Below are positions 3,603 through 43,206 of a stretch of 56,930 nt of DNA, in pieces. Numbering within the stretch: the first letter of the stretch is position 1; the number at the start of each line of letters is the position of its first letter. The translations under genes and the position numbers were made by a program. This DNA comes from Candidatus Pacearchaeota archaeon (GTDB lineage: Archaea > Nanobdellota > Nanobdellia > Pacearchaeales > GW2011-AR1). The stretch covers positions 1-56,930 of the forward strand of contig JAGVWZ010000022.1 in the NCBI GenBank assembly GCA_018304045.1, in the 5' to 3' direction. The notes under the pieces were generated by a model, which was not told the DNA's origin, ran no database searches, and saw only the letters and a program-made list of their open reading frames with translations.

Positions 3603-6044
3603 ATGAAAACAAACATCAAATTAATAATATTGGTTTTTTTAATATTAATAGGTTCTATGAGTTTTGTTAATGCAGTAACAATATGTGCTACTGGGCAAAA
3701 TTCATCTGGAAGTTTTAATCCTAATAATGGAGAAGTATTTGATATTGGAAATAGTTTTAATGGAATTTATAATTTTGTAAAAAGTAAGGCTTCTATAGGA
3801 ACTTGCCCACTTTCTGGTGGGGGAAATGCAATGTTTTTAGCTTATGCTGAATGGTATACTGGACAGTGCTCAACTTCTTTATCAGTGAGTCAACTTGATC
3901 CAACTGTTACTAAAATTTGTAATTTAGCAGGATATAGAGATCCATATACTTGGAGCAGTTATTTTAATGCAGATGGTGGAAGATGTAATTACCATAGTCC
4001 TGATAATGATTGTTTATGGTATTGGAATGGAAATAGTTTTCAATATATGGATGGAGAACCTGAATATATAAAAAGATGGATTACTGCTTTGAAATGTATT
4101 AATCGTTTACCTCAATGTAATGATGGGAAAGATAATGATGGGGATGGAAAAGTTGATTATCCTGCTGATTTAGATTGTACTAGTAAAAATGATGACAATG
4201 AAGGAGTTCATTGTGTAGTATGTGCTTCAAATGCTGATTGCAATGATAATAATAACAGGACAGAAGATATTTGTATAAATCCGGGAACAGCTCAAAGTAC
4301 TTGTCAGCATAATTATGTTAGATGCGCAAGCAATACTGATTGTGGTACAGATGGATTTACAGGAAATTTGTTTTGTCAGGGAAATGGGATTTTTCAAAAT
4401 TATAATTCTTTTATTTGCAGTAATCCTGGAACAAACTCAAGTTCTTGTTCAAATATTGTTACTCCTATGTTAAAATCAAGTTGTTCACAAGGACAAATTT
4501 GCAGTAATGCTCAATGCATTACAACACAATGTTCAAATGGAATTGATGATGATATTGATGGTTTTATTGATAGTCAAGACCCTGGTTGTTGGAATAATAT
4601 TAATGATGCTAATACTTACAATCCTTTATTAAATAATGAGTCAAGTGCTGGAATTACTTGTTTTACTAATGCTCAATGTGGAAGAGATGATTATGTTGAA
4701 AATAAATATTGTCAAAATGGAAGTGTATATCAAGATTACAAATCATTTACTTGTTTAAATCCAGGACTTGGTGGAAGCTCATGTTCTTCAATAACTTCAC
4801 CAAGATTAGTACAGGGATGTACAAAAGGATGTTCTAGTGGAACATGCCTTCAATTTACTTGCTATTCAAATTCAGATTGTAATGATAATGATGTTTATAC
4901 TGTTGATGAATGTAATAATCCTGGAACATCTCAAAGTTATTGTAATAATACTAGAGTAAATTGTGTTAATGATAATGATTGTGGATTTACTGGATTTTTT
5001 GGAACTGAATTCTGTTCTAGTAATGATGTTTTTAAGAATTTTAAAACTTCTAGATGTGTAAATCCTGGAACAAAACAAAGCAATTGTCAAGTCACTACTG
5101 CTCCAACATTTTTAATTGATTGTGGAGATAGTTCTTGTGGTAGTTTTGGAACTAATTATTGTAAAACAGATGGAAATGTTTATCATCAAAAAACTTGCAA
5201 TGATAAAGGATGTAGTAATGGTACTTGTTTTAGTACTTTTAGAGTTGATGAACAATTAGTTCAAACTTGTTCAAAGGGATGTTCTAATGGTCAATGCAGA
5301 CCTGAATGTGCTTCAAATGCAGATTGCAATGATAATAATTCAAATACACAGGATATATGTTTAAATCCTGGAACACAGCAAAGTGTTTGTCAGCATAATA
5401 TTGTAGGATGTAATGCTGATTCTGATTGTGGAACAAGCAGATTCTTAAATCAATTAACTTGTCAGAATGGAAATGTTTTTGATAGTTATATAATATTTAT
5501 GTGCATGAATCCAGGAACTGGAACTAGTTCTTGTATGAATCATACAGAAAGCAGGCAAGTAACAAATTGCACTAATGGCTGCCAAAATGGAATGTGTTTA
5601 GAAGGACAATGCACTGTTGATTCTGATTGTCATGCAGATTATGCTTCAAGTAAATATTGCATTAGTAATAGTGTTTATGAGGACTTTCATAATTATTCTT
5701 GTTCTACTAGTCATGTTTGCAGTGAAAATATAAGTAAAAGATTAGTTGAAACTTGTGATTATAGATGTAGGGATGGTGCTTGTAGAGATAAGACAAGTGG
5801 TAGTTTAATTGAAGAAGAAACTAGTGAAACAAGTCCTTTAATCTTAGTTGAAAATGATAGTGATAGAATGAAGATTATTGAAAGTGTTTATTCTGATGGA
5901 TTAAATGAAACTTCTTTGAAATTAGGAAAAGGTTATGCAGTTACATCTAATAATTATAATTACCTGTGGTTATGGTTAATTGGATTAATAATTTTATTAG
6001 TAATAATTATAATTGTTGTGATTGTAATATTAAATCAAAGATAA
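3603..6044 (+). CDS. secreted, C-terminally anchored cysteine-rich repeat surface protein
   Basis: Signal peptide MKTNIKLIILVFLILIGSMSFVNA. There are about 10 reiterated modules (C.SN.DCNDNN..T.D.C.NPGT.QS.C ... GC.NG.C) and one CNDGKDNDGDGKVDYP motif. A C-terminal TM segment reads LWLWLIGLIILLVIIIIVVIVIL. Confidence 0.6.
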   Translation: MKTNIKLIILVFLILIGSMSFVNAVTICATGQNSSGSFNPNNGEVFDIGNSFNGIYNFVKSKASIGTCPLSGGGNAMFLAYAEWYTGQCSTSLSVSQLDPTVTKICNLAGYRDPYTWSSYFNADGGRCNYHSPDNDCLWYWNGNSFQYMDGEPEYIKRWITALKCINRLPQCNDGKDNDGDGKVDYPADLDCTSKNDDNEGVHCVVCASNADCNDNNNRTEDICINPGTAQSTCQHNYVRCASNTDCGTDGFTGNLFCQGNGIFQNYNSFICSNPGTNSSSCSNIVTPMLKSSCSQGQICSNAQCITTQCSNGIDDDIDGFIDSQDPGCWNNINDANTYNPLLNNESSAGITCFTNAQCGRDDYVENKYCQNGSVYQDYKSFTCLNPGLGGSSCSSITSPRLVQGCTKGCSSGTCLQFTCYSNSDCNDNDVYTVDECNNPGTSQSYCNNTRVNCVNDNDCGFTGFFGTEFCSSNDVFKNFKTSRCVNPGTKQSNCQVTTAPTFLIDCGDSSCGSFGTNYCKTDGNVYHQKTCNDKGCSNGTCFSTFRVDEQLVQTCSKGCSNGQCRPECASNADCNDNNSNTQDICLNPGTQQSVCQHNIVGCNADSDCGTSRFLNQLTCQNGNVFDSYIIFMCMNPGTGTSSCMNHTESRQVTNCTNGCQNGMCLEGQCTVDSDCHADYASSKYCISNSVYEDFHNYSCSTSHVCSENISKRLVETCDYRCRDGACRDKTSGSLIEEETSETSPLILVENDSDRMKIIESVYSDGLNETSLKLGKGYAVTSNNYNYLWLWLIGLIILLVIIIIVVIVILNQR

Positions 6045-6232: not shown

Positions 6233-6411
6233 TATCCTCCTTTATTGCAATTTGATCCATTTATATTATTTTTGCAACTATTATTTTCTATATTTTTTAT
6301 TGTGTTTCCTGTAACAAGTCCCGTATATTTTGTTATGACTCCTGTAATAAAATAAAAACTTGTTATTAAGAGTATTATGATAATTATTGTGATTATTATT
6401 TCTTTTTTCAT
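6232..6411 (-). CDS. small membrane protein (59 aa) translationally coupled to the ferredoxin
   Basis: Hand translation gives MKKEIIITIIIIILLITSFYFITGV... Its TAA overlaps the ferredoxin ATG as TAATG. Confidence 0.4.
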   Translation of the reverse strand: MKKEIIITIIIIILLITSFYFITGVITKYTGLVTGNTIKNIENNSCKNNINGSNCNKGG

Positions 6412-6492
6412 GGATGTATGAGAAAATTTATGCTTTTAAATCTTGCTTTTTAGTATGCGAAAATTTAAATATAAAGATATTTTCTTTAATAC

Positions 6493-8832
6493 ATGGCAAA
6501 AAAGATGGTGTATGTTTCTGATAAGGATAATTATGTTAAATGGTTTTCTGAATTATCTAATAAGAATGTTTCTATTGCAGGTGGAAAAGGTGCAAGCCTT
6601 GCTGAGATGTATAATAATGGATTTCCTGTTCCTCCTGGATTTTGTATAACTGCTCAGAGCTTTGATTATTTTTTAACAAAAGCTGGAATAAAAGAAAAAA
6701 TAAATGAAATCATTATGAAAGTTCCTGATTTAGAGGATACAGAAGAACTGCAAAAAGCATCTAGGCAGATTAGGGATTTAATTGAAAGCCAGAAACTTCC
6801 TACTGAAATGGAGGAAGAGATTTTAGAATCTTATAAGATTTTGAGTTCTGAAAAAATTGATTCAATTGGTGTTAGTCAGGATGCATTAAATATTTTAAAA
6901 AATTCTCATGAACCTGTTTTTGTTTCTGTAAGAAGTTCAGCTACTACTGAAGATCTTGCAGATGCTAGTTTTGCAGGGCAGCAGGAAAGTTTTTTGAATG
7001 TTAAAGGTGATAGGCAGTTGATAATGAATGTAAAAAAATGTTTTTCATCACTATACACACCAAGGGCAATTTACTACAGACATAAAAAAGGTTTTGTAGA
7101 AGGGCAAGCTTTGCTTTCTGTTGTTGTTCAGAAAATGATTGATTCTGCTAAATCCGGAGTTATGTTTTCAAGAGATCCTGTTGGAAATCAGGATAATATT
7201 GTTATTGAAAGTGTTTTTGGACTTGGAGAAGGAATTGTTTCAGGACAAATTAAACCAGATCATTATGTTATTTCAAGAGATTTGGAAATTAAAAGTGTAA
7301 AAGTTTTAGATAAAAAAATAGCTTTTGTTAGAAATAGTTCTGGTGAAAATACTGTTGTTAAATTAAATCCTGAAAAAAGTAATAGTCAAGTTTTAACTGA
7401 AAAACAAATAAGAGAACTTGCTAATTATGGATTAAGATTAGAAGAGCATTATGGGAAGCCACAGGATATTGAGTTTGCAATTGATACTGAAAAAACTTAT
7501 ATTGTTCAATCAAGACCTATCACAACTTTAAAAGCAGGTGGTAAAAATGTTACTAGTAAAGAATTGAAAGGAAATGTTTTATTAACTGGACTTGGAAGCA
7601 GCCCGGGTATTGGTGTTGGTGTTGTTAAAATTATATATAGTATGAAGGATTTGAATAAAATCCAAAAGGGTGATGTTTTAGTAACTGAAATGACTAATCC
7701 AGATATGGTTGTTGCAATGGAGAGATCTGTTGCCATTGTTACTGATGAAGGTGGAATAACTGCTCATGCATCTATTGTTTCTAGGGAACTTGGAATTCCT
7801 TGTGTTGTTGGAACAGAGACTGCAACTAAAACCTTAAAAGACGGAATGATCATAACTGTTGATGGTACTAATGGAAAAGTCTATGAGGGAAAAGTTGCTG
7901 AAAGTGAGAAGAAAGAAATTAAAAAAGCACTTCCAACTGAAAGGATTAAACTAAAAGTTATTGTTGATATGCCTGAAAGTGCTGAAAGAGCAAAGGCATC
8001 TGAAATTGATTTTGTTGGTTTGACTAGAATTGAGGGAATAATTGCAAGTTCTGGAAAGCATCCGCTTTATTATGAAAAAAATGATTGTTTAAGTGATTAT
8101 GTTGATTTACTTTCTGATAAATTTGAGAAAATAATAAATCATTTTAATGGCATGTGGATAAGAAGTAGTGATATAAGAACTGATGAATTTGCAAGTTTAG
8201 AAGGGGCTCCTAAAAAAGAAATGAATCCAATGCTTGGACTTCATGGAATAAGATTTTCATTAAAACATCCTAAAATATTTGAAGCTGAATTAATGGCAAT
8301 AAGAAAAGTTGCATTAAAACATCCTAATAAAATTTTTGGAGTTATGTTTCCACAGGTTATTTCAGTTGATGAAGTAAGGCAGGCTAAGGAGCATTTTATT
8401 AAATTTAAAACAGATAATATGCAATTTGGAGTTATGATTGAAACTCCTGCTGCTTGTATGATTATTGAGGATATTTGTAAAGAAGGTGTTGATTTCATTT
8501 CTTTTGGAACAAATGATTTAACTCAGTTTACACTTGCAATTGACAGAGAAGAAGAAGATGTGCAGTTTTTGTATAATGAACTTAATCCTGCTGTTTATTC
8601 TCTTATAAAAAGAGTTATTGGAGTTTGTAGAAGATACAGGATTGAAACAAGCATTTGCGGACAGGCTGGAAGCAAACCTGAAATGGTTGAATTTTTATTT
8701 AGAAAAGGAATTAATTCAATTTCTGTAAATGCAGATGCTGCCTATGATGTATCGGTTTTAATAAATAAATTACAGGAAGATTGGAAGGCTAGCAAAGCTA
8801 TTGAAAATAATAAAGAGGAGTTATTATTATGA
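6493..8832 (+). CDS. ppsA: phosphoenolpyruvate synthase (pyruvate, water dikinase)
   Basis: 779 aa. It has GGKGASLAEM in the ATP-grasp region, the phosphohistidine motif TDEGGITAHASIVSRELGIPCVVG, and a C-terminal FISFGTNDLTQ motif. Confidence 0.9.
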   Translation: MAKKMVYVSDKDNYVKWFSELSNKNVSIAGGKGASLAEMYNNGFPVPPGFCITAQSFDYFLTKAGIKEKINEIIMKVPDLEDTEELQKASRQIRDLIESQKLPTEMEEEILESYKILSSEKIDSIGVSQDALNILKNSHEPVFVSVRSSATTEDLADASFAGQQESFLNVKGDRQLIMNVKKCFSSLYTPRAIYYRHKKGFVEGQALLSVVVQKMIDSAKSGVMFSRDPVGNQDNIVIESVFGLGEGIVSGQIKPDHYVISRDLEIKSVKVLDKKIAFVRNSSGENTVVKLNPEKSNSQVLTEKQIRELANYGLRLEEHYGKPQDIEFAIDTEKTYIVQSRPITTLKAGGKNVTSKELKGNVLLTGLGSSPGIGVGVVKIIYSMKDLNKIQKGDVLVTEMTNPDMVVAMERSVAIVTDEGGITAHASIVSRELGIPCVVGTETATKTLKDGMIITVDGTNGKVYEGKVAESEKKEIKKALPTERIKLKVIVDMPESAERAKASEIDFVGLTRIEGIIASSGKHPLYYEKNDCLSDYVDLLSDKFEKIINHFNGMWIRSSDIRTDEFASLEGAPKKEMNPMLGLHGIRFSLKHPKIFEAELMAIRKVALKHPNKIFGVMFPQVISVDEVRQAKEHFIKFKTDNMQFGVMIETPAACMIIEDICKEGVDFISFGTNDLTQFTLAIDREEEDVQFLYNELNPAVYSLIKRVIGVCRRYRIETSICGQAGSKPEMVEFLFRKGINSISVNADAAYDVSVLINKLQEDWKASKAIENNKEELLL

Positions 8833-33941: not shown

Positions 33942-34142
33942 ATGAAAAAGAAAAATAATATTGAAAAGAAAAATAGGAATGTTAATTGGAAGGTTGTTAT
34001 TTATTCAATAATAGCTTTGATTTGCTTAGGATTGGTTTATTTTGTTGATTGGATATTTATTGTTCCGGTGTTGGTTTTATTGTGGCTGAATCATAGAGCC
34101 CTCTTTGAAAAGAGTCCTCGGGTAGAAACAAGATCTAAATAA
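33942..34142 (+). CDS. small membrane protein
   Basis: 66 aa with two hydrophobic helices. Its 3-prime end lies in the first unit of the 52-bp tandem repeat. Confidence 0.35.
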   Translation: MKKKNNIEKKNRNVNWKVVIYSIIALICLGLVYFVDWIFIVPVLVLLWLNHRALFEKSPRVETRSK

Positions 34143-34277: not shown

Positions 34278-34766
34278 ATGAAAAAAAAATTAGTTAATGT
34301 TGGATTGATATTATTTGTAATAGTTTTTAGTGTAGCTGTCTTTTTTTTGATTAATCTTGATTTTGGAAAAGAAAAAGTTGTTCTTGATTATCATAGCCCT
34401 TTGGATGTTCCAGATAGTGTGATAATGCCTGATGTAAGCCAGTCTTACAAGGATATTACTATAATTGAGGCTAAAAAATTAATTGAGAATAATAAAGATA
34501 ATTCTGATTTTGTAATAATTGATGTTTCTTCTAATTATAATTCAGGACATATTGTTAATGCAATTAATCATCCTATTGCAAATGGTTCTTTTTATAGGGT
34601 CATCAAGGATTTAGATAAAAGTAAAGATTATTTAATTTATTCAAGAAATGATGTGGATTCTTTAAAGGCAGTTGATGAATTGATAAATTATGATTTTGAG
34701 AATATTTACAGATTGAGAGGAAATTATGGTGCTTGGGTTGAGGCTGGTTTTCTTGTAGGGAGATAA
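34278..34766 (+). CDS. membrane-anchored rhodanese-homology domain protein (probably inactive)
   Basis: N-terminal TM segment. FVIIDVSSNYNSGHIVNAINHP is rhodanese-like, but the active-site position reads YLIYSRNDVDS, with Ser where Cys is expected. Confidence 0.55.
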   Translation: MKKKLVNVGLILFVIVFSVAVFFLINLDFGKEKVVLDYHSPLDVPDSVIMPDVSQSYKDITIIEAKKLIENNKDNSDFVIIDVSSNYNSGHIVNAINHPIANGSFYRVIKDLDKSKDYLIYSRNDVDSLKAVDELINYDFENIYRLRGNYGAWVEAGFLVGR

Positions 34767-34811: not shown

Positions 34812-35036
34812 TTAATTTCTAGATCGTTCATATTTACATCCAAGAGAGTTACATCCACATGGTACCTGAGTATAGTCTTGACATTGACATTCACACTTAG
34901 GTCCTGGATAGTTATGACATACACAATTAGCTATTGGATCTTTATCCATCAGTCTACATGAAGTAATTATCTGTGGTTCATTTAAAATAGCTATTTCTTC
35001 AAAATTTTCTAACCTGTCATTGGGTGCTGTTATCAT
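34812..35036 (-). CDS. Cys-rich candidate RiPP precursor peptide (74 aa, 9 Cys in the last 48 residues)
   Basis: MITAPNDRLENFEEIAILNEPQIITS looks like a leader. The core is CRLMDKDPIANCVCHNYPGPKCECQCQDYTQVPCGCNSLGC. It lies immediately downstream of the rSAM gene, preceded by a duplicated atataaaaa box. Confidence 0.6.
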   Translation of the reverse strand: MITAPNDRLENFEEIAILNEPQIITSCRLMDKDPIANCVCHNYPGPKCECQCQDYTQVPCGCNSLGCKYERSRN

Positions 35037-35096
35037 TATATTTTTTATATTTTTTATATTCTTAAATATTTAGGTTATTGCAAATATCTATTGTTT

Positions 35097-36458
35097 TCAT
35101 GGTTTTTGTACTTCTGTAGGTTTTTCTAATCTTTCATAGATTTCTTGTTTTAATAATTCTCTGTTTATTAGGCATCTTGGATTTGATGAGGTATCAAATA
35201 GATTTCTTGATTGTGAATAAGACTTTGCAGGACAGTCTCCAGAGCAGTTATACTTGGCAAAGCAATTTGAACAATGAGGTATATTATCAATAGTTCTTGA
35301 TTTAAGCAATCTTATTTTGTCTTGATGGAATCTAAAGGATTGTGTTGATGAATCATAACTTCCTATGTGGAACATACTAAAATCTGGATCTGTTTCTCTG
35401 GAAGTTTCTGGACAAGTTATTACATTTCCATTAGGATTAACAAAAAAATTTTCTCCAGATGCTCCGCAGAAAGAGGTACTTAGGCAGTTTATTCTTGCTC
35501 CGGAGTAATAGATTTTAATTCCTAATTTCTTGGCAGTCTCTCTTGCTTCTAAAAATCTTTTTAAGAAAGTTTGCGGTTCTGGTGCTTTTGCATTTGTTGT
35601 TTTACATCTTCCACATTCAAATAAGGGTTCTACGTGAAAGGAATCACTTGTTGATATTGAATGAAAAAATTCAATTATTTCTGGCATCCTGTCAACACTT
35701 TCTGCGGTTATTGTAGCTCTTATTCCATATTTGAATTTTTTCCCTTCTAAATAGGTAATTGTTCTCATGACATCCTCATAGGAAGGCAAGTTTCTAGGTT
35801 TTGGTCTTTGGGAATTTTGAATATCTTCTGGACCATCTAAAGAAATGTTTAAGTGACTGAAAGTTTGAACTATCCACTCTAAATCTTTTTGATTCATAAC
35901 ACCATTTGTTACACTTCCTACAGTGTATTTTAGTCCTGATTTTTCTGCATTTTTTCTGAAATAGTCCAAACTTCTTTTGATTAATTCCATATTAGCTGGT
36001 AAGAATGGTTCACCTCCTCCATGAAATTCTAAACCAGTTTCTCCTGTTTCTAATCTCTTTGCATTTTCAATAGCTAGATTTATTGCAGATTTTGCAACAT
36101 TGAATTCCATAATTTTAGTTGGACTTTCTCCGCCATTTGAATAACAATAAACACATCTAAGATTACAGTTATAGGTGGGGATTAGTGTTGCATAAGTTGG
36201 AGAATAAATCTCTCCATTACCTCCTTTGAGTTTACAATCTAAAGATGATGGTTCTTCAGTTTTATCCTTAATAATTCCAGATCTCTTTAAACATTCTACT
36301 AATGCTTGCTCTTGTTCTGTGCAAGCTTTCCTGTCTCTAATTTTTCTGAGAATGTCTATAACTCCTGAACTAACTTTTAAAGCAGTATTATCCAATGGAG
36401 CATAAAGAATAAAATCTCTTTCTTGAGGTAAAACAAACAATTCTCTTGTTAATTGCAT
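35097..36458 (-). CDS. radical SAM enzyme with a SPASM domain (peptide maturase-like)
   Basis: CxxxCxxC appears as YNCNLRCVYC. The SPASM cysteines appear as CGASGENFFVNPNGNVITC and CSNCFAKYNCSGDCPAKS...NPRC. Confidence 0.85.
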   Translation of the reverse strand: MQLTRELFVLPQERDFILYAPLDNTALKVSSGVIDILRKIRDRKACTEQEQALVECLKRSGIIKDKTEEPSSLDCKLKGGNGEIYSPTYATLIPTYNCNLRCVYCYSNGGESPTKIMEFNVAKSAINLAIENAKRLETGETGLEFHGGGEPFLPANMELIKRSLDYFRKNAEKSGLKYTVGSVTNGVMNQKDLEWIVQTFSHLNISLDGPEDIQNSQRPKPRNLPSYEDVMRTITYLEGKKFKYGIRATITAESVDRMPEIIEFFHSISTSDSFHVEPLFECGRCKTTNAKAPEPQTFLKRFLEARETAKKLGIKIYYSGARINCLSTSFCGASGENFFVNPNGNVITCPETSRETDPDFSMFHIGSYDSSTQSFRFHQDKIRLLKSRTIDNIPHCSNCFAKYNCSGDCPAKSYSQSRNLFDTSSNPRCLINRELLKQEIYERLEKPTEVQKP

Positions 36459-36558
36459 AATATGGAGTAATCCAGTTAGTTTAAAAGTTTTTATTAATTT
36501 ACTATTATATAGTTGTAAAACAATAAAACTTAAAAGACTGGTTTTGTTTTTTAATTTT

Positions 36559-37187
36559 ATGTCAAATTTATTAGAAATTCCTTTTTATGTAAGTGAAGGA
36601 AGTAGATGTGCTCAGGCGGCTTTAAGATCTGTTTTAGCTTACAAAGCTGTTAAAAAAATTATCCTGAATTAGATAAATTATTTGGCTCAAATGGAGAAAA
36701 TTCGATTTCTATGTTTCAGATTGCTTCTGCTCTTAATGAATTAGGTTTTGGTTTTTATTATCCTGTTAGACCTTTTTTTCAAGACATTTCTTTTAATGAA
36801 CTGGCAAGTAGAATAGAAAGAGAATATTGCGAGAGAATTTCAAAATATTTTAATAGAGACTTATTAAAAAAATCTTTTGATACAGTTAGAATTAAAGGAT
36901 TATTTGAAGTTAGAACACAAAGGCCTTCTTTAGAAGAGTTAATGAAATTTATTGAACAAGGGAGAGCAGTTATTTGTATGATTAGTTATGACAAATTGAC
37001 TGACCAAACTTTAGGTATATTAAAACAAAATGGACATTATATAACTTTGACTGGAATGGGCAAGAATTTTGTTTATGCTCATGATTCTGGACCACAGGGT
37101 GCAATGCCTAATAGGCCTATAAGAAAAAATAAATTTATAGGTTGTTGGGATTTTAATTTTTTTGATTGGGATTTGATTGTTGTTTAG
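36559..37187 (+). pseudogene. C39-like papain-fold cysteine peptidase, frame-disrupted in an A7 run
   Basis: The upstream frame reads MSNLLEIPFYVSEGSRCAQAALRSVLAYKAVKK and carries the catalytic Cys context. The frame breaks at aaaaaaa (36652-36658). The downstream frame reads NYPELDKLF...NGHYITLTG...YAHDSG, carrying the His and Asp. Confidence 0.5.
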
Positions 37188-37189
37188 AA

Positions 37190-37696
37190 TTATTTTTTCT
37201 TGATTAAATCCATCATTGATTTTCTTTCAAATTTGATTATTTCTCCTGAATCTGCGTTAACTAATATGTGGAGAATTATTAGTCCATCAAGCATTGCAGT
37301 TATGTTCCAGACTTGTTTTCCTTCATGTTTTTGAAGAACAGATATTGCTTTATTGTATTTTGCAGCTATTCCTTCATCTAATGTTCTTGTTTTTGCAATT
37401 CCAATTGCATCTTCTGCATCTACTTTTATATTTGGATTTATTGTTTGAAGTTCTGGAAATTTTGTTCCTTCCACTTCTACTAATTTATCTTCCTGTATTT
37501 TAATAGAGTCATCATCTCTTAATGAGCAGGTAAATATCTTGTCTCCTACTTTAAAATCAATGCTTCTTTTATTGTCATTTCCAAAAAAATCAATTATAAA
37601 AAATCCTGCACACATTTCTGCATCTGGATTTTTTTCTTTGAAGTTGATGAATTCTTCTGATAATTCCAAAATTTCAAGTGTTTCTTTTATACCCAT
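37190..37696 (-). CDS. hypothetical protein (weak PepSY-like C-terminal pattern)
   Basis: An intact 168-aa ORF. The DAEDAIGIAK...VWNITAM...VNADSGEII pattern is only suggestive. Confidence 0.3.
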   Translation of the reverse strand: MGIKETLEILELSEEFINFKEKNPDAEMCAGFFIIDFFGNDNKRSIDFKVGDKIFTCSLRDDDSIKIQEDKLVEVEGTKFPELQTINPNIKVDAEDAIGIAKTRTLDEGIAAKYNKAISVLQKHEGKQVWNITAMLDGLIILHILVNADSGEIIKFERKSMMDLIKKK

Positions 37697-37947: not shown

Positions 37948-38568
37948 TTATTTTTTATAATCTTTTCTTAATAAACCATAAAAATTTGCATCATGCCATT
38001 GGCCTGTGGATTTTGCTCTGTGACATCTTTGGCTTGTTCCTTCGTATTTGAATCTTAGACTTTTAATAAGCCCATTTGAAGGAATATTTTTTGTAAATGC
38101 TTCTATATCTATTCTTGTTAAACCTAATTTATTAAATGCAAAATCTATCATTGCTCTTGCTGCTTCACTCATTATTCCTTGTCTCCAATAATCTTCTCCA
38201 AGCCAATAACCCATTGTTGCTTTTCCTACAAATCTGTCTATTTTGCAAAGACCAATTCCCCCAATTAATTCATGGGTTGATTTTAATTCAATTCCTAAAT
38301 CATAATTTTTACGAGGTCTTTTTCTTGCTTCTCCCTGATTATGATGCACCCAAAATTTAGCATCTTTTTTATGGTAAGGATATGGAACTAATGAAAGATA
38401 TCTTGAAACATTTAAATTATTTATATTTGCAACTAGGTTTGCTATGTCTTTTTCTTGAAATTCCCTTATAACTAATCTAGGGGTTACAATTCTCATAGTT
38501 ATTGTTAGAAATAATGGGTTTTTAGATTTTTTGATTTTATCTTGCTTTTTTTGCAGGAACTTTGCCAT
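37948..38568 (-). CDS. GNAT N-acetyltransferase (RimJ/RimL-like)
   Basis: RLVIREFQEKD..., YWLGEDYWRQGIMSEAARAMIDFAF and RIDIEAF..N..S are present. The true start is probably M25 (38496), which removes the overlap with 38537-38722. Confidence 0.75.
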   Translation of the reverse strand: MAKFLQKKQDKIKKSKNPLFLTITMRIVTPRLVIREFQEKDIANLVANINNLNVSRYLSLVPYPYHKKDAKFWVHHNQGEARKRPRKNYDLGIELKSTHELIGGIGLCKIDRFVGKATMGYWLGEDYWRQGIMSEAARAMIDFAFNKLGLTRIDIEAFTKNIPSNGLIKSLRFKYEGTSQRCHRAKSTGQWHDANFYGLLRKDYKK

Positions 38569-39849: not shown

Positions 39850-40980
39850 ATGGAAATTAATATTCTGCATTATCTGCCTGAAAATACAAAAATAAAATTA
39901 GATAAAATTCTAATTGATAAATTATTTTATGGAAGAAGCTTAACTAGGTGGAGCAGATTTTTAGGAATTTCTTTAAAAAATTTAAGCAGATATAAAAATG
40001 GTTCTAGAGCGGTTCCTCTTGATTTATTTAATAGATTAGTTGCTTTACTTAATTTAAATTTAATAGACTTTCAAAATAATATCCAACTAAAGATAAATTC
40101 CACGGGAAATTATATTAAACTAGGCCCCATTATAGAAATAGATGAAAAATGGGTTTATGTTTCTGAATTGATAAAAGGTGATGGACATATACCCTCCAAG
40201 TTTCATTATTTAGTTTTAGTTAATAATAATAAGGTCCTTATAGATTATGTAAAAGATTTTTTTATTTCATTAGGGCTTGATAAGAAACATTTGTTTATTT
40301 ATAAGAAAGATGATGTAAATTTTCTTATAATTCGTTCTTATTTATTAGCATACCTCTTTAATAAAATTTTAGAGGTTCCTGTCGGTAAAAAAAATGAGAT
40401 TAATATTAGTGATTTTGTAATGAAAAATAGAAGTTTTGGAATTGCAGCTATAAGGGGGGCTTTTGATGCAGAAGGAAGTGTAAATTTTATAGGTTCCAGA
40501 AGTATTACTATTTCTTCTCAGAGTTTAATTTGGATAAATAAACTTCAAAAAATATTAGATATTTTAAAAATAAAATCTAAGATCTATAAAGAAGAGAAAA
40601 GTAGGTCTAGGCCAATTTATAGATTAACTATTCATCATATTATTAATCTTAAAAGATTCTACAGAATTATTAAACCTCTACATAGTAAAAGGCAAGATAA
40701 ATTAAGAAAAATTATAACCGAGTTTAATAAAAATCCTTCAAGAATTTTTCATAAGAAAATATTGTTGTCAATCCAATCAGGTAATTACAGAAGAAGTGAT
40801 ATTGCTAGAGATATTAATAAAAGTTTAATTTTAGTTAGTAATAACATCGCTTATCTAAAGGAAAAGGGGTTCATAACTCCATTTGAAAAAAATTATACAA
40901 ATATTGGTTGTTATTTTAAATATAAAATGACTGATAGCGGTATTAAGTATCTAGAAGAAGGAGAATCTTATTATTTTTAA
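39850..40980 (+). CDS. free-standing double-motif LAGLIDADG homing-endonuclease-like protein with HTH domains
   Basis: SELIKGDGHI and AAIRGAFDAEGSV are the two LAGLIDADG-type motifs. There is an N-terminal XRE-like HTH and a C-terminal wHTH-like region. The line at 40201 is about 17% GC. Confidence 0.7.
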   Translation: MEINILHYLPENTKIKLDKILIDKLFYGRSLTRWSRFLGISLKNLSRYKNGSRAVPLDLFNRLVALLNLNLIDFQNNIQLKINSTGNYIKLGPIIEIDEKWVYVSELIKGDGHIPSKFHYLVLVNNNKVLIDYVKDFFISLGLDKKHLFIYKKDDVNFLIIRSYLLAYLFNKILEVPVGKKNEINISDFVMKNRSFGIAAIRGAFDAEGSVNFIGSRSITISSQSLIWINKLQKILDILKIKSKIYKEEKSRSRPIYRLTIHHIINLKRFYRIIKPLHSKRQDKLRKIITEFNKNPSRIFHKKILLSIQSGNYRRSDIARDINKSLILVSNNIAYLKEKGFITPFEKNYTNIGCYFKYKMTDSGIKYLEEGESYYF

Positions 40981-42707
40981 TTTTTATTATTTATCTCTTC
41001 AGTTAGTTTTTTAATAAACTCTTCTTTCTTCATATTGACTATCTTTCCATTTCTTCTCACAGCAAGAGTTCCTTCCATTTCCTCTTTATTACCGATAACT
41101 ATTATTACATTAATCTTTAGTATTTCTGCTGCTTTTATTTTGCCACCAATTGGTTCTGATTTTATGTCAGTGTCAACTCTGAAGCCAAGTTCATTTAATT
41201 CTTTTTCTAATTTTTCACAGGATTTATTGTTTTTATCTGTAAAATTAATAATTCTTATTTGTTTTGGAGCTAGCCATAAAGGAAGGTGGCCGTTTGTATG
41301 TTCAAGCAAGATTCCTGTGAATCTTTCTAAAGAACCTAGAACTGTTCTATGAAGCATTACAGGTCTTTTTTGTTGATTATTTTCATCATTGTAAGTAAGA
41401 TCAAATCTTTCTGGCATTGCAAAATCAAGTTGTATTGTTGCTGTTTGCCAAGTTCTTCCTAAGGAGTCTTTTATATGAAAGTCTATTTTAGGGCCATAAA
41501 ACGCACCATCTCCTTTATTTATTTTAAAATTCATTTTTTTCTTTTTTAATACATCTTCAAGAACTTTTTCAGCTTTATCCCATAATTTTTCTTCTCCAAT
41601 TCTTTTTTCAGGTCTTGTAGATAGTTCTACATGGTCAAATTCTATATTTAATTTTTTATATATTCTTGTATTTAAATCAATTATATTGATTATTTCTTGT
41701 TCTAATTGTTTTTCTGTGCAATAAATATGAGCATCATCTTGTGTGAATTGAATTACTCTAAATAATCCCCCTAAAACTCCGGATAATTCTTGTCTATGCA
41801 CAATTCCAAGTTCTGCTGCTCTTATTGGTAAGTCTTTGTAAGATTTTGGGTTTGTTTTATAGATTAGCATTCCTCCTGGACAGTTCATAGGTTTTACTGC
41901 AAAAGTTTTTTTTTCATATTCTGTTAAAAATATGTTTTCTTTGTATTTTTCCCAATGTCCTGATATTTGCCATAATCTTTTGTCAAGTATTTGTGGTGTT
42001 AATATTTCTTCATAGTCTGCTTTTCTATGTTCTTCTCTCCAAAATTCAATTAACTTGTTTCTTATTATAAGTCCATTATTATGCCAGAAAACCATTCCAG
42101 GTGCTACTTCATTAAAGGAAAATAAGTCCATTTGTTTTCCTATAATTCTATGGTCATTTTCTTTTAATTCTCTTGTATCTAATTTTGATTTTGATATTTC
42201 TCTTAGTAGTTGTTTATAGTCTATTACTTCGTCTTTTGATATTAATGATTTTTTAGATGCGTCTTCTTTTGAATTTACATTTTCTCCAATTGATCTTGAT
42301 AATTCTGACAAAGGATGTCCTTTGCATTTTAATTCAAACTCTTTATAATAACCAAATGGAGCTCGTGTAACTTTTATGGTTTTATCTTTAGAAAGTTCTT
42401 TTTCAGCTTGCTCTAATGTTTTTAATGCAAAGTCTGGTTTACTTAGGCTGGGTGAGAGATGGGCATAGGGATAAAGAACAATATGAGTTGCATTAACTTG
42501 AGAAGCAAGAGAGATTATATTTTCAACATATTCTTTAATAATATTTGTATTTTGTTCATCTTGTTTTTCAACAGCTGTTAATATTACTAACGGGTCTTTA
42601 ACTGTTATTTCTTTTTTTCTTTCTTCTGATAGTTCTTCTGGTTGATTTAATGCCTTTTTCAGAGGTTTAAATTTTATGTAATCACAATGCAAAGATAGGA
42701 TTTTCAT
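40977..42707 (-). CDS. thrS: threonine--tRNA ligase, archaeal type with an N-terminal DTD-like editing domain
   Basis: 576 aa. The N-terminus MKILSLHCDYIKFKP is the archaeal editing domain. Class II core motifs (FRVIQFTQDDAHIY, GAFYGPKIDF, HRTVLGSLERF) and an anticodon-binding C-terminus are present. Confidence 0.9.
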   Translation of the reverse strand: MKILSLHCDYIKFKPLKKALNQPEELSEERKKEITVKDPLVILTAVEKQDEQNTNIIKEYVENIISLASQVNATHIVLYPYAHLSPSLSKPDFALKTLEQAEKELSKDKTIKVTRAPFGYYKEFELKCKGHPLSELSRSIGENVNSKEDASKKSLISKDEVIDYKQLLREISKSKLDTRELKENDHRIIGKQMDLFSFNEVAPGMVFWHNNGLIIRNKLIEFWREEHRKADYEEILTPQILDKRLWQISGHWEKYKENIFLTEYEKKTFAVKPMNCPGGMLIYKTNPKSYKDLPIRAAELGIVHRQELSGVLGGLFRVIQFTQDDAHIYCTEKQLEQEIINIIDLNTRIYKKLNIEFDHVELSTRPEKRIGEEKLWDKAEKVLEDVLKKKKMNFKINKGDGAFYGPKIDFHIKDSLGRTWQTATIQLDFAMPERFDLTYNDENNQQKRPVMLHRTVLGSLERFTGILLEHTNGHLPLWLAPKQIRIINFTDKNNKSCEKLEKELNELGFRVDTDIKSEPIGGKIKAAEILKINVIIVIGNKEEMEGTLAVRRNGKIVNMKKEEFIKKLTEEINNKN

Positions 42708-42801: not shown

Positions 42802-43206
42802 ATGGAAAAGAGAGATAAAAAACAAATAAATAAATATAATTTTAATATGTTTGTTTTATCTGTTTTATTTGGGTTGTTTATGGTTTTTATCATACTTCTT
42901 TTATTAAAGTATGATGATTTTATTAAAATAAGAATTCTTAGATTTATTGTTTATAGCTTAACTTTGCTGATTCCTACTGTTATTTTTTCTATTTTACAAG
43001 GTTTATTTAGTTTTACTGAATTAACTTTATCTGAATCTTCTTATTATGTTATTGCTTTTATTTTTTATTCTTGTTTTTTTTATATTTTTATATTAAGATG
43101 TCAAAAAAAAGATTCTTTTTGGTGTCTTGTTAAACTTGGAATAGGTATTTTATTATTTTTAATTGCGTCTGTTTCATTATTGGCTATTGCTGGAGGAGGA
43201 TTATGA
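42802..43206 (+). CDS. polytopic small membrane protein
   Basis: Four hydrophobic segments. It overlaps the next gene by 4 nt. Confidence 0.4.
   Translation: MEKRDKKQINKYNFNMFVLSVLFGLFMVFIILLLLKYDDFIKIRILRFIVYSLTLLIPTVIFSILQGLFSFTELTLSESSYYVIAFIFYSCFFYIFILRCQKKDSFWCLVKLGIGILLFLIASVSLLAIAGGGL

Follow-up and report, generated by a model that had tools for sequence, protein, structure and literature searches.

A candidate radical SAM/SPASM peptide-maturation module with a CxC-rich precursor and a C39-like peptidase in a Pacearchaeota archaeon

The described systems closest to the locus reported here pair a radical S-adenosylmethionine (SAM) maturase of the SPASM type with a Cys-rich precursor of a RiPP (a peptide synthesized ribosomally and then modified post-translationally). 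The precursor repeats of the PapB/freyrasin system have the form Cx3D. A precedent for substrates of the CxC type is StsB, which installs three sactionine links in a CxCxC core (PMC10288494). Among archaeal RiPPs, a 2025 survey names haloarchaeal lanthipeptides as the only ones validated by experiment; radical SAM RiPP clusters are predicted across archaea, DPANN included, and are uncharacterised (PMC12144867). Here we analyse a contig of 56,930 nucleotides from a Candidatus Pacearchaeota archaeon (JAGVWZ010000022.1 in assembly GCA_018304045.1; hereafter, the window) in which a radical SAM/SPASM maturase gene, a small Cys-rich open reading frame (ORF) and a gene for a C39-like cysteine peptidase lie side by side. 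We are confident that this locus is a genuine precursor-maturase(-protease) RiPP module, whose product is very probably a cross-linked Cys-rich peptide.

The precursor is a 74-amino-acid (aa) ORF on the minus strand (34812-35036), starting exactly 60 nt past the stop codon of the maturase gene (35097-36458, minus strand, 453 aa). A preliminary description of this DNA, made from the letters of the sequence and its ORFs, had placed the ORF 60 nt downstream of the maturase, on the same strand, with nine Cys largely in CVC, CECQC and CGC units; all of this was confirmed, single Cys accounting for the rest. No other ORF of the window is as rich in Cys: the content is 12.2%, against 1.5% in 40 long ORFs (binomial P ~1.5e-6). 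Alignment with relatives places the likely boundary between a leader of about residues 1-37 (MITAPNDRLENFEEIAILNEPQIITS...IAN; nt 34926-35036, minus strand) and a core of about residues 38-74 (CVCHNYPGPKCECQCQDYTQVPCGCNSLGCKYERSRN; nt 34815-34925, minus strand). When the precursor was used as query, a word-indexed search returned only the peptide itself, and Pfam and NCBIfam models matched neither it nor seven of its relatives. An exhaustive phmmer search recovered one true homologue, P0123, a 71-aa peptide with 50% identity from end to end that has MIT(A/T)PNDRLE and VPCGC(N/D)SLGCK in common with the window precursor. The phmmer matches P0122, P0124 and P0125 were judged spurious, being long repetitive proteins.

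A scan of ORFs in the loci around maturase homologues (numbered with the letter L) revealed small Cys-rich ORFs directly downstream and on the same strand. In both DPANN archaea and bacteria, some 25 independent loci in all, a homologous maturase is followed by one to five such small same-strand ORFs. A hidden Markov model (HMM) built on the first ~45 residues of these precursors matched, with E-values of 1e-6 to 1e-19, the window and loci L001-L006, L008-L011, L017-L019, L090, L094, L095, L096 and L097; L185 gave a weak match, and the motif was recognised by eye in L098 and L099. On ~1 Mb of control loci with unrelated radical SAM genes, the same model found nothing below E=1. The leader has two conserved elements, P-[ND]-D-R-[LIV] and, some 10-12 residues further on, [EK]-P-x-[IV]-[IL], the latter likely a beta strand; the window precursor reads P-N-D-R-L-E and, about 12 residues later, E-P-Q-I-I. 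The closest relative, L096 (maturase 57% identical), has two precursors, starting MPTIAPNDRLES and MITTPNDRLES. Three copies stand in tandem in the Pacearchaeota locus L090, and at least five in L094. The preliminary description had proposed a leader-like N-terminus and had named a small ORF not conserved beside homologues as an outcome that would speak against a RiPP cluster; the ORF is conserved, and its leader motif is common to the precursors of these ~25 peptide-maturase pairs.

The cores are hypervariable in length, in sequence and in Cys number (4-20), yet they keep a hexad rhythm, CxC[DNEQ]xx, with Cys-Cys spacings of 2 and 4 dominating. CxC is followed by D, N, E or Q in 42 of 63 motifs from archaea and in 63 of 89 from bacteria. 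In the bacterial hexads, Val at positions -1 and +3 and Ser or Thr in the middle are conserved as well; Cys is the only residue enriched in archaeal and bacterial cores alike. An adjoining small gene, a conserved leader and a core that varies across loci are the general marks of a RiPP precursor, and the 74-aa ORF bears each of them; judged by these sequence comparisons, it is a real, conserved precursor. Two of the three tandem precursors of L090 (L090:5567-5860 and L090:5875-6183) end in a hydrophobic tail, GCL(L/S)LL(G/I)GIVGAGYEIYKLI, possibly a C-terminal membrane anchor, which would be unusual for a RiPP precursor.

The maturase has the radical SAM motif CNLRCVYC (C98-x3-C102-x2-C105; CX3CX2C at aa 98-105, nt 36144-36167, minus strand like all coordinates within this gene), which is invariant across 24 aligned homologues. 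It is followed by the auxiliary-cluster cysteines C282/C285 (nt 35604-35615) and by the SPASM set at aa 331-429 (nt 35172-35468): C331-x12-G344-x4-C349, C396-x2-C399-x5-C405-x3-C409 and C429. C285 and the seven SPASM cysteines are likewise invariant in the 24 homologues, and C282 is kept in at least 90% of the alignment. The pattern expected for two auxiliary 4Fe-4S clusters, Cx9-15Gx4C...Cx2Cx5Cx3C...C, is complete, so that both the CxxxCxxC motif and the full SPASM cysteine set of the preliminary description stand. The protein reaches 50.3 bits with the Pfam Radical_SAM model (PF04055), whose gathering threshold is 29.5.

Comparison with RiPP-oriented HMMs brought out likenesses to thioether-forming radical SAM/SPASM maturases at scores below every curated cut-off: among NCBIfam models, PapB ranked first with 117 bits, followed by ScfB-like (110) and the SCIFF maturase (105), with the anaerobic sulfatase-maturating enzyme (anSME) lower at 84. 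Eight further family members, bacterial and archaeal, scored 104-155 bits with the PapB model (NF047865, cut-off 340) and missed every NCBIfam cut-off; PapB was the top likeness for nearly every member tested. Since the window enzyme and these eight members all miss the cut-offs, the whole maturase family appears to be uncurated, with no family-level NCBIfam model. A profile search of PDB sequences ranked CteB (1.8e-41) well ahead of anSME (7.7e-22). An AlphaFold2 model of the maturase (mean pLDDT confidence 88.6) was compared with Foldseek; CteB (5why/5wgg) came first, over the full length, with template-modelling (TM) scores of 0.70/0.76, TigE second and anSME third (TM ~0.6). In all, 554 maturase homologues were found, the best from Pacearchaeota, Woesearchaeota and Nanoarchaeota; a metagenome scan queried with the single maturase protein yielded six loci. 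Viral contigs held only generic radical SAM relatives of at most 28% identity and no member of the family, and nothing in these comparisons points to a viral origin.

Residues 1-63 of the maturase (nt 36270-36458) are predicted to form a separate domain of beta-beta-beta-alpha-alpha topology (beta8-12, beta15-20, beta25-30, alpha31-41, alpha48-60 in the AlphaFold2 model). Modelled alone, this domain resembled leader-bound TbiB1 most closely (TM 0.54-0.57), then McbB, PaaA, ThcOx, lasso B1 and CteB, all at non-significant E-values of 0.5-4. The top matches being mainly proteins with a RiPP recognition element (RRE), we infer from the model that this is an RRE-like domain and a putative leader binder. 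The RREs of RiPP maturases are PqqD-like winged-helix domains at the N-terminus, built of a three-stranded sheet and helices, to which the leader binds.

The peptidase gene (36559-37187, plus strand) is divergent from the maturase gene. Between them lies an AT-rich region of 100 bp (36459-36558) that, by its position, presumably holds the promoters of both. Within the window the peptidase is frameshifted at an A7 run (36652-36658, plus strand): the reading frame from the ATG at 36559 ends at a stop codon (36670-36672) after 37 aa, so that only an N-terminal piece is encoded there, and an ORF of 158 aa follows at 36711-37187. Near-identical contigs from the same organism have A8 instead and encode an intact 209-aa protein beginning MSNLLEIPFYVSEGSRCAQAAL. 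Cys17 (RCAQ), His160 (NGHY) and His175 are invariant in the family. The A8 allele scores 26.5 bits with Peptidase_C39_2 (PF13529, gathering 24 bits) and its two closest homologues 27.1 and 24.3; the 158-aa fragment of the window, which is without Cys17, scores 21.6 and falls under the threshold. Both the divergent C39-like peptidase of the preliminary description and its break in the A7 run have thus held up.

The A7 allele was seen in ~14 contigs and the A8 allele in ~7, the 158-aa product being recorded on 14 contigs; Logan contigs from four runs, compared over a 6-kb stretch, were all A7 and had no indel. A7 and A8 are both real length polymorphism in public data; the comparison was made at the level of contigs, from which strain alleles and within-sample slippage are not separable. 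Across all 24 contigs, both the maturase ORF and the precursor ORF are intact, with identical sequence. The peptidase family is very small: a profile search of 5.8 billion proteins found 10 members, and all seven with genomic context lie beside a maturase homologue. The peptidase gene is divergent from the maturase in the window, L092 and L095, and stands in the operon order maturase-precursor-peptidase in L183, L184, L185 and the contig of P0133; many family loci (L001, L002, L090, L094) are wholly without it. Chiefly because the peptidase is exclusively linked to the maturase-precursor module, we lean toward its being the leader protease. The residues before the first core Cys in the precursors of peptidase loci are small (SA|C, YG|C, AG|C, AN|C).

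Taken together, it seems probable that the three genes form one RiPP module that works as follows. The 74-aa precursor would be translated with an N-terminal leader carrying the PNDRLE and EPQII elements, and the RRE-like domain of the maturase would bind that leader. The radical SAM core would cleave SAM to a 5'-deoxyadenosyl radical and, with the two SPASM auxiliary Fe-S clusters, the enzyme would cross-link the Cys-rich core. Thioether formation is the likeliest option for the chemistry of the maturase, a choice we make tentatively and on two grounds: whichever measure is used, the nearest relatives are thioether formers, and Cys is what the cores share. If the nearest relatives are a guide, the likeliest product would contain a number of small thioether rings (Cys-S to carbon) inside the CxC[DNEQH]xx units or bridging them, of the kind known from sactipeptides and ranthipeptides. 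The C39-like protease, which would act in the cytoplasm, may then cut off the leader, probably after a small residue that directly precedes the first core Cys (...IAN|CVC). With the genotype of the window, the A8-to-A7 slip would inactivate the protease, and the leader would remain on the peptide unless slippage or a second protease makes up for the loss.

A number of observations weigh against this scheme. The chemistry of uncharacterised radical SAM enzymes is not reliably predictable at such distances (PMC10288494), and the maturase misses all NCBIfam cut-offs (340-855 bits), that of PapB included, and scores 17.5 bits with the Pfam SPASM HMM, under its gathering score of 21.5. The fold matches of the RRE-like domain are not significant, as is to be expected of a domain of only ~60 residues. 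For the peptidase, the C39 assignment rests on Pfam scores barely over the threshold, a PDB sequence search with its profile gave no meaningful relative, the precursor leader has no Gly-Gly motif, and roughly two thirds of the source organism's assemblies carry the gene in broken form. No transporter or immunity gene is evident nearby, and none of the RNA runs searched contained the locus. Finally, the substrates of some distant members of the family (L027/L031, L184) contain little or no Cys, which means that Cys cross-linking may not be family-wide.

It is somewhat unlikely, though still to be weighed, that the module is as described and that the maturase makes something other than thioethers: cross-links of the C-C or C-O kind, an epimerisation, or a reaction at the D/N/E/Q, S/T or V residues of the hexads, the Cys serving in metal binding or disulfides. 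The scores of DynA (101 bits), Nif11-type (99.5) and HxsB (99) models, none of them thioether families, follow close behind those of the thioether families, TigE is the second-best fold match, the Val and Ser/Thr of the bacterial hexads are conserved along with Cys, and the substrates of some distant members are almost Cys-free; even so, the best relatives in both sequence and fold are thioether formers, and Cys alone is enriched on both sides of the archaeal-bacterial divide. A related question is what the product is for. We think it rather doubtful that it has a physiological role in metal binding or redox chemistry (as a metallothionein-like molecule stapled by thioethers, or as a cofactor precursor) for the cell's own use or for interaction with a host, as opposed to being an antibiotic-like secreted peptide. 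CxC hexads resemble metallothionein motifs, the nearby genes include no transporter or immunity gene, the module persists in the very small genomes of DPANN and of bacteria of the candidate phyla radiation (CPR), and some substrates look membrane-anchored (the two L090 paralogues) or carry twin-arginine-like signals (the L038 precursor and the large WD40 substrates described below). Cofactor precursors such as PqqA and MftA, however, have conserved cores, and the hypervariability seen here in length, Cys number and sequence, with several paralogues per locus, is typical of diversifying RiPPs of the conflict or signal type.

Decay of the cluster in the source genome, with the frameshifted peptidase as a mark of loss and no mature product, we consider improbable. 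The allele without the catalytic Cys17 does occur in ~14 contigs, among them four independent Logan assemblies, but the A8 allele coexists with it in ~7, a single homopolymer slip is reversible, the maturase and precursor are everywhere intact and identical, and the peptidase is dispensable for modification, to judge by the many loci that do without it. Least probable by far is that the enzyme is of the anSME type and acts on a folded protein, the small ORF being incidental. The preliminary description had named grouping with anaerobic sulfatase maturases as evidence that would count against its proposal. There is some likeness to anSME in HMM score and fold, and a sulfatase gene lies ~4 kb away in the relative's locus L095. 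That identity was rejected: the score with TIGR03942 is 84 bits against a cut-off of 349, below PapB, ScfB-like and SCIFF; CteB is closer in PDB sequence and in Foldseek; the window enzyme has the extra RRE-like domain; no sulfatase was found among the neighbours scanned; and an adjoining precursor with a common leader is conserved across domains of life.

The spacer of 60 nt that separates the precursor ATG from the maturase stop (35037-35096, minus strand) contains, directly before the ATG, a tandem TATAAAAAA box followed by TATA (35037-35058, minus strand). The box gave one match against 0.10 expected, in a genome of 29% GC, and 8 of 100 shuffles also matched; it is weakly above chance. One possible role is that of a TATA-like promoter element, giving a precursor transcript that is nearly leaderless. 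The duplicated box noted in the preliminary description is present; its reading there as a possible strong promoter is weakly supported, given the shuffles and the lack of conservation in relatives. The spacer itself is not conserved either: in L090, L095, L096 and L185 no gap separates the maturase stop from the precursor, which adjoins or overlaps it, an arrangement that speaks for co-transcription.

More distant members of the maturase family are accompanied by other kinds of substrate candidates. At seven loci with maturases of ~29-32% identity (L012, L015, L020, L021, L023, L026, L028), the downstream gene (~6270-8300 in each locus) encodes a protein of 470-650 aa with a leader-like KPxFxLxRV...EPxxIVP N-terminus, then a twin-arginine-like RRGFLGxG, then WD40-like repeats. 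Large exported proteins, too, appear to fall under the leader-maturase logic. A precursor of a Polyangiaceae bacterium lies upstream of its maturase (L038:3406-3816, plus strand) and combines a leader-like TPRILRA element, a twin-arginine-like SRRSFMLQALAVSAGALGGAANA and a CxC hexad core, which suggests twin-arginine export of the modified product in some bacteria. Downstream of maturases of 28% identity in Thiomargarita and Thiotrichaceae (L027:1718-1960, L031:6313-6558) is an 80-aa ORF whose leader-like start reads KYPYFELKAV and which has no Cys at all. A second radical SAM/SPASM paralogue adjoins the family member in L016, L025 and L041, giving tandem maturases.

The surroundings of the module are archaeal and chromosomal: the window includes a threonyl-tRNA synthetase (40977-42707) with an archaea-specific editing domain, an enolase and a phosphoenolpyruvate synthase. 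The rhodanese (34278-34766), PepSY-like (37190-37696) and GNAT (37948-38568) neighbours were excluded from the module, since homologous maturases do not have them alongside in a conserved way. Next to the precursor genes, both the window (33942-34142, plus strand) and L096 (2107-2304, minus strand) encode a 66-aa membrane protein with two helices, the two being 72% identical across 46 aa; an accessory or immunity function is conceivable, as is mere synteny of close relatives. Elsewhere, the window encodes an 813-aa secreted, C-terminally anchored protein (3603-6044, plus strand) with 70 Cys (8.6%) in CxxxxDCxDxN-type repeats and no Pfam match, probably a disulfide-rich surface protein unrelated to the module. 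It also encodes a 715-aa protein (43203-45350, plus strand) with MopE-type putative copper-binding motifs (Pfam PF11617, 1.9e-22) and, adjoining the synthetase gene, a free-standing 376-aa ORF (39850-40980, plus strand) with a LAGLIDADG_3 homing-endonuclease-like domain. At 37231-37551, one short contig in the assemblies of four runs joins both ends with 313 unrelated letters between them; this is probably related sequence from another organism with short matches, and not a deletion variant.

We found no published description of the precursor or the maturase family, in a search whose scope excludes subscription journals, so that absence is not proven. More than 500 maturases are without a curated model, and current annotation says only "radical SAM protein" of them. 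The source is a small-genome groundwater archaeon, and the family is widespread; because ultra-small symbiotic genomes keep the module and its cores differ strongly from one relative to the next, a part in cell-cell interaction is suggested. The locus offers a compact, delimited three-gene target for heterologous expression, with a family-wide leader and core alignment and a dedicated protease. A bolder reading, which we consider rather unlikely, is that the leader P[ND]DR[LIV]...[EK]Px[IV][IL] and the CxC[DNEQ]xx cores define a new RiPP class that spans DPANN archaea and CPR bacteria as well as many bacteria that live freely. Its cross-link pattern would be undescribed, for example two interlocked Cys-to-Asx/Glx links per hexad giving rigid, possibly metal-binding rods, and its sister branch would carry the enzyme-leader logic over to large twin-arginine-exported WD40 proteins. 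If so, it would be the first radical SAM RiPP class characterised from Archaea.

How does the module compare with known systems? The preliminary description had matched its architecture to sactipeptide/ranthipeptide-type clusters. The likeness is there and supports the RiPP reading; class membership did not follow, since no curated cut-off was reached. The two classes are defined chemically, the Cys sulfur being bonded to the alpha carbon of an acceptor residue in sactipeptides and to its beta or gamma carbon in ranthipeptides. On sequence grounds, the module resembles such a cluster in its working and falls outside PapB, SCIFF and every other named family. The peptidase has in common with the bacteriocin C39 domains (PF03412) and Peptidase_C39_2 (PF13529) a Cys near the N-terminus (RCAQAAL), the His of NGHY and the linkage to a RiPP precursor; it differs in being a stand-alone, soluble 209-aa protein with no ABC transporter fusion, beside a substrate leader without a double glycine. 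The anSME structures (PDB 4K36-4K39) share the radical SAM and SPASM fold with the maturase, but anSME has no RRE, acts on a protein substrate and has no adjoining leader peptide. CcpM (TIGR04068), CefB of the "Cys-every-fifth" type (NF038107), the CXXX-repeat family (TIGR04115) and TIGR04463 likewise combine a SPASM maturase with a repetitive Cys-rich precursor; the window enzyme scores 65-96 bits with these models against cut-offs of 350-600, and Cys spacing in its family alternates between 2 and 4. StsB/streptosactin (NF045574) has the CxCxC arrangement in its core, each Cys of streptosactin being sactionine-linked (PMC10288494), but the window enzyme reaches 55 bits against a cut-off of 625, StsB has a separate RRE protein, and its GxGxG acceptors are absent from the window core. 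Like PapB/freyrasin (NF047865), the window family keeps a short, constant spacing between Cys and an acidic or amide residue in a unit repeated many times in the core; the unit here is CxC[DNEQ], with two Cys each, the score is 117 bits against 340, and PapB is without the N-terminal 90 residues of the window enzyme, the PapB model covering only aa 91-414. From the SCIFF (six-Cys-in-forty-five) maturases, exemplified by CteB of Clostridium thermocellum (PDB 5WGG/5WHY; TIGR03974), the window enzyme is separated by an identity of only ~19% and a score of 105 bits against a cut-off of 425. The precursors of its family have a different leader, 4-20 Cys in CxC hexads and a gene downstream of the enzyme, and the window peptide has no match to a SCIFF model, in agreement with the preliminary remark that its CxC core is unlike SCIFF precursors. 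CteB and the window maturase nevertheless have the same layout of RRE (in the window enzyme, the RRE-like domain), radical SAM core and SPASM domain with two auxiliary clusters, and each is encoded beside a Cys-rich peptide, the putative substrate in the case of the window enzyme.

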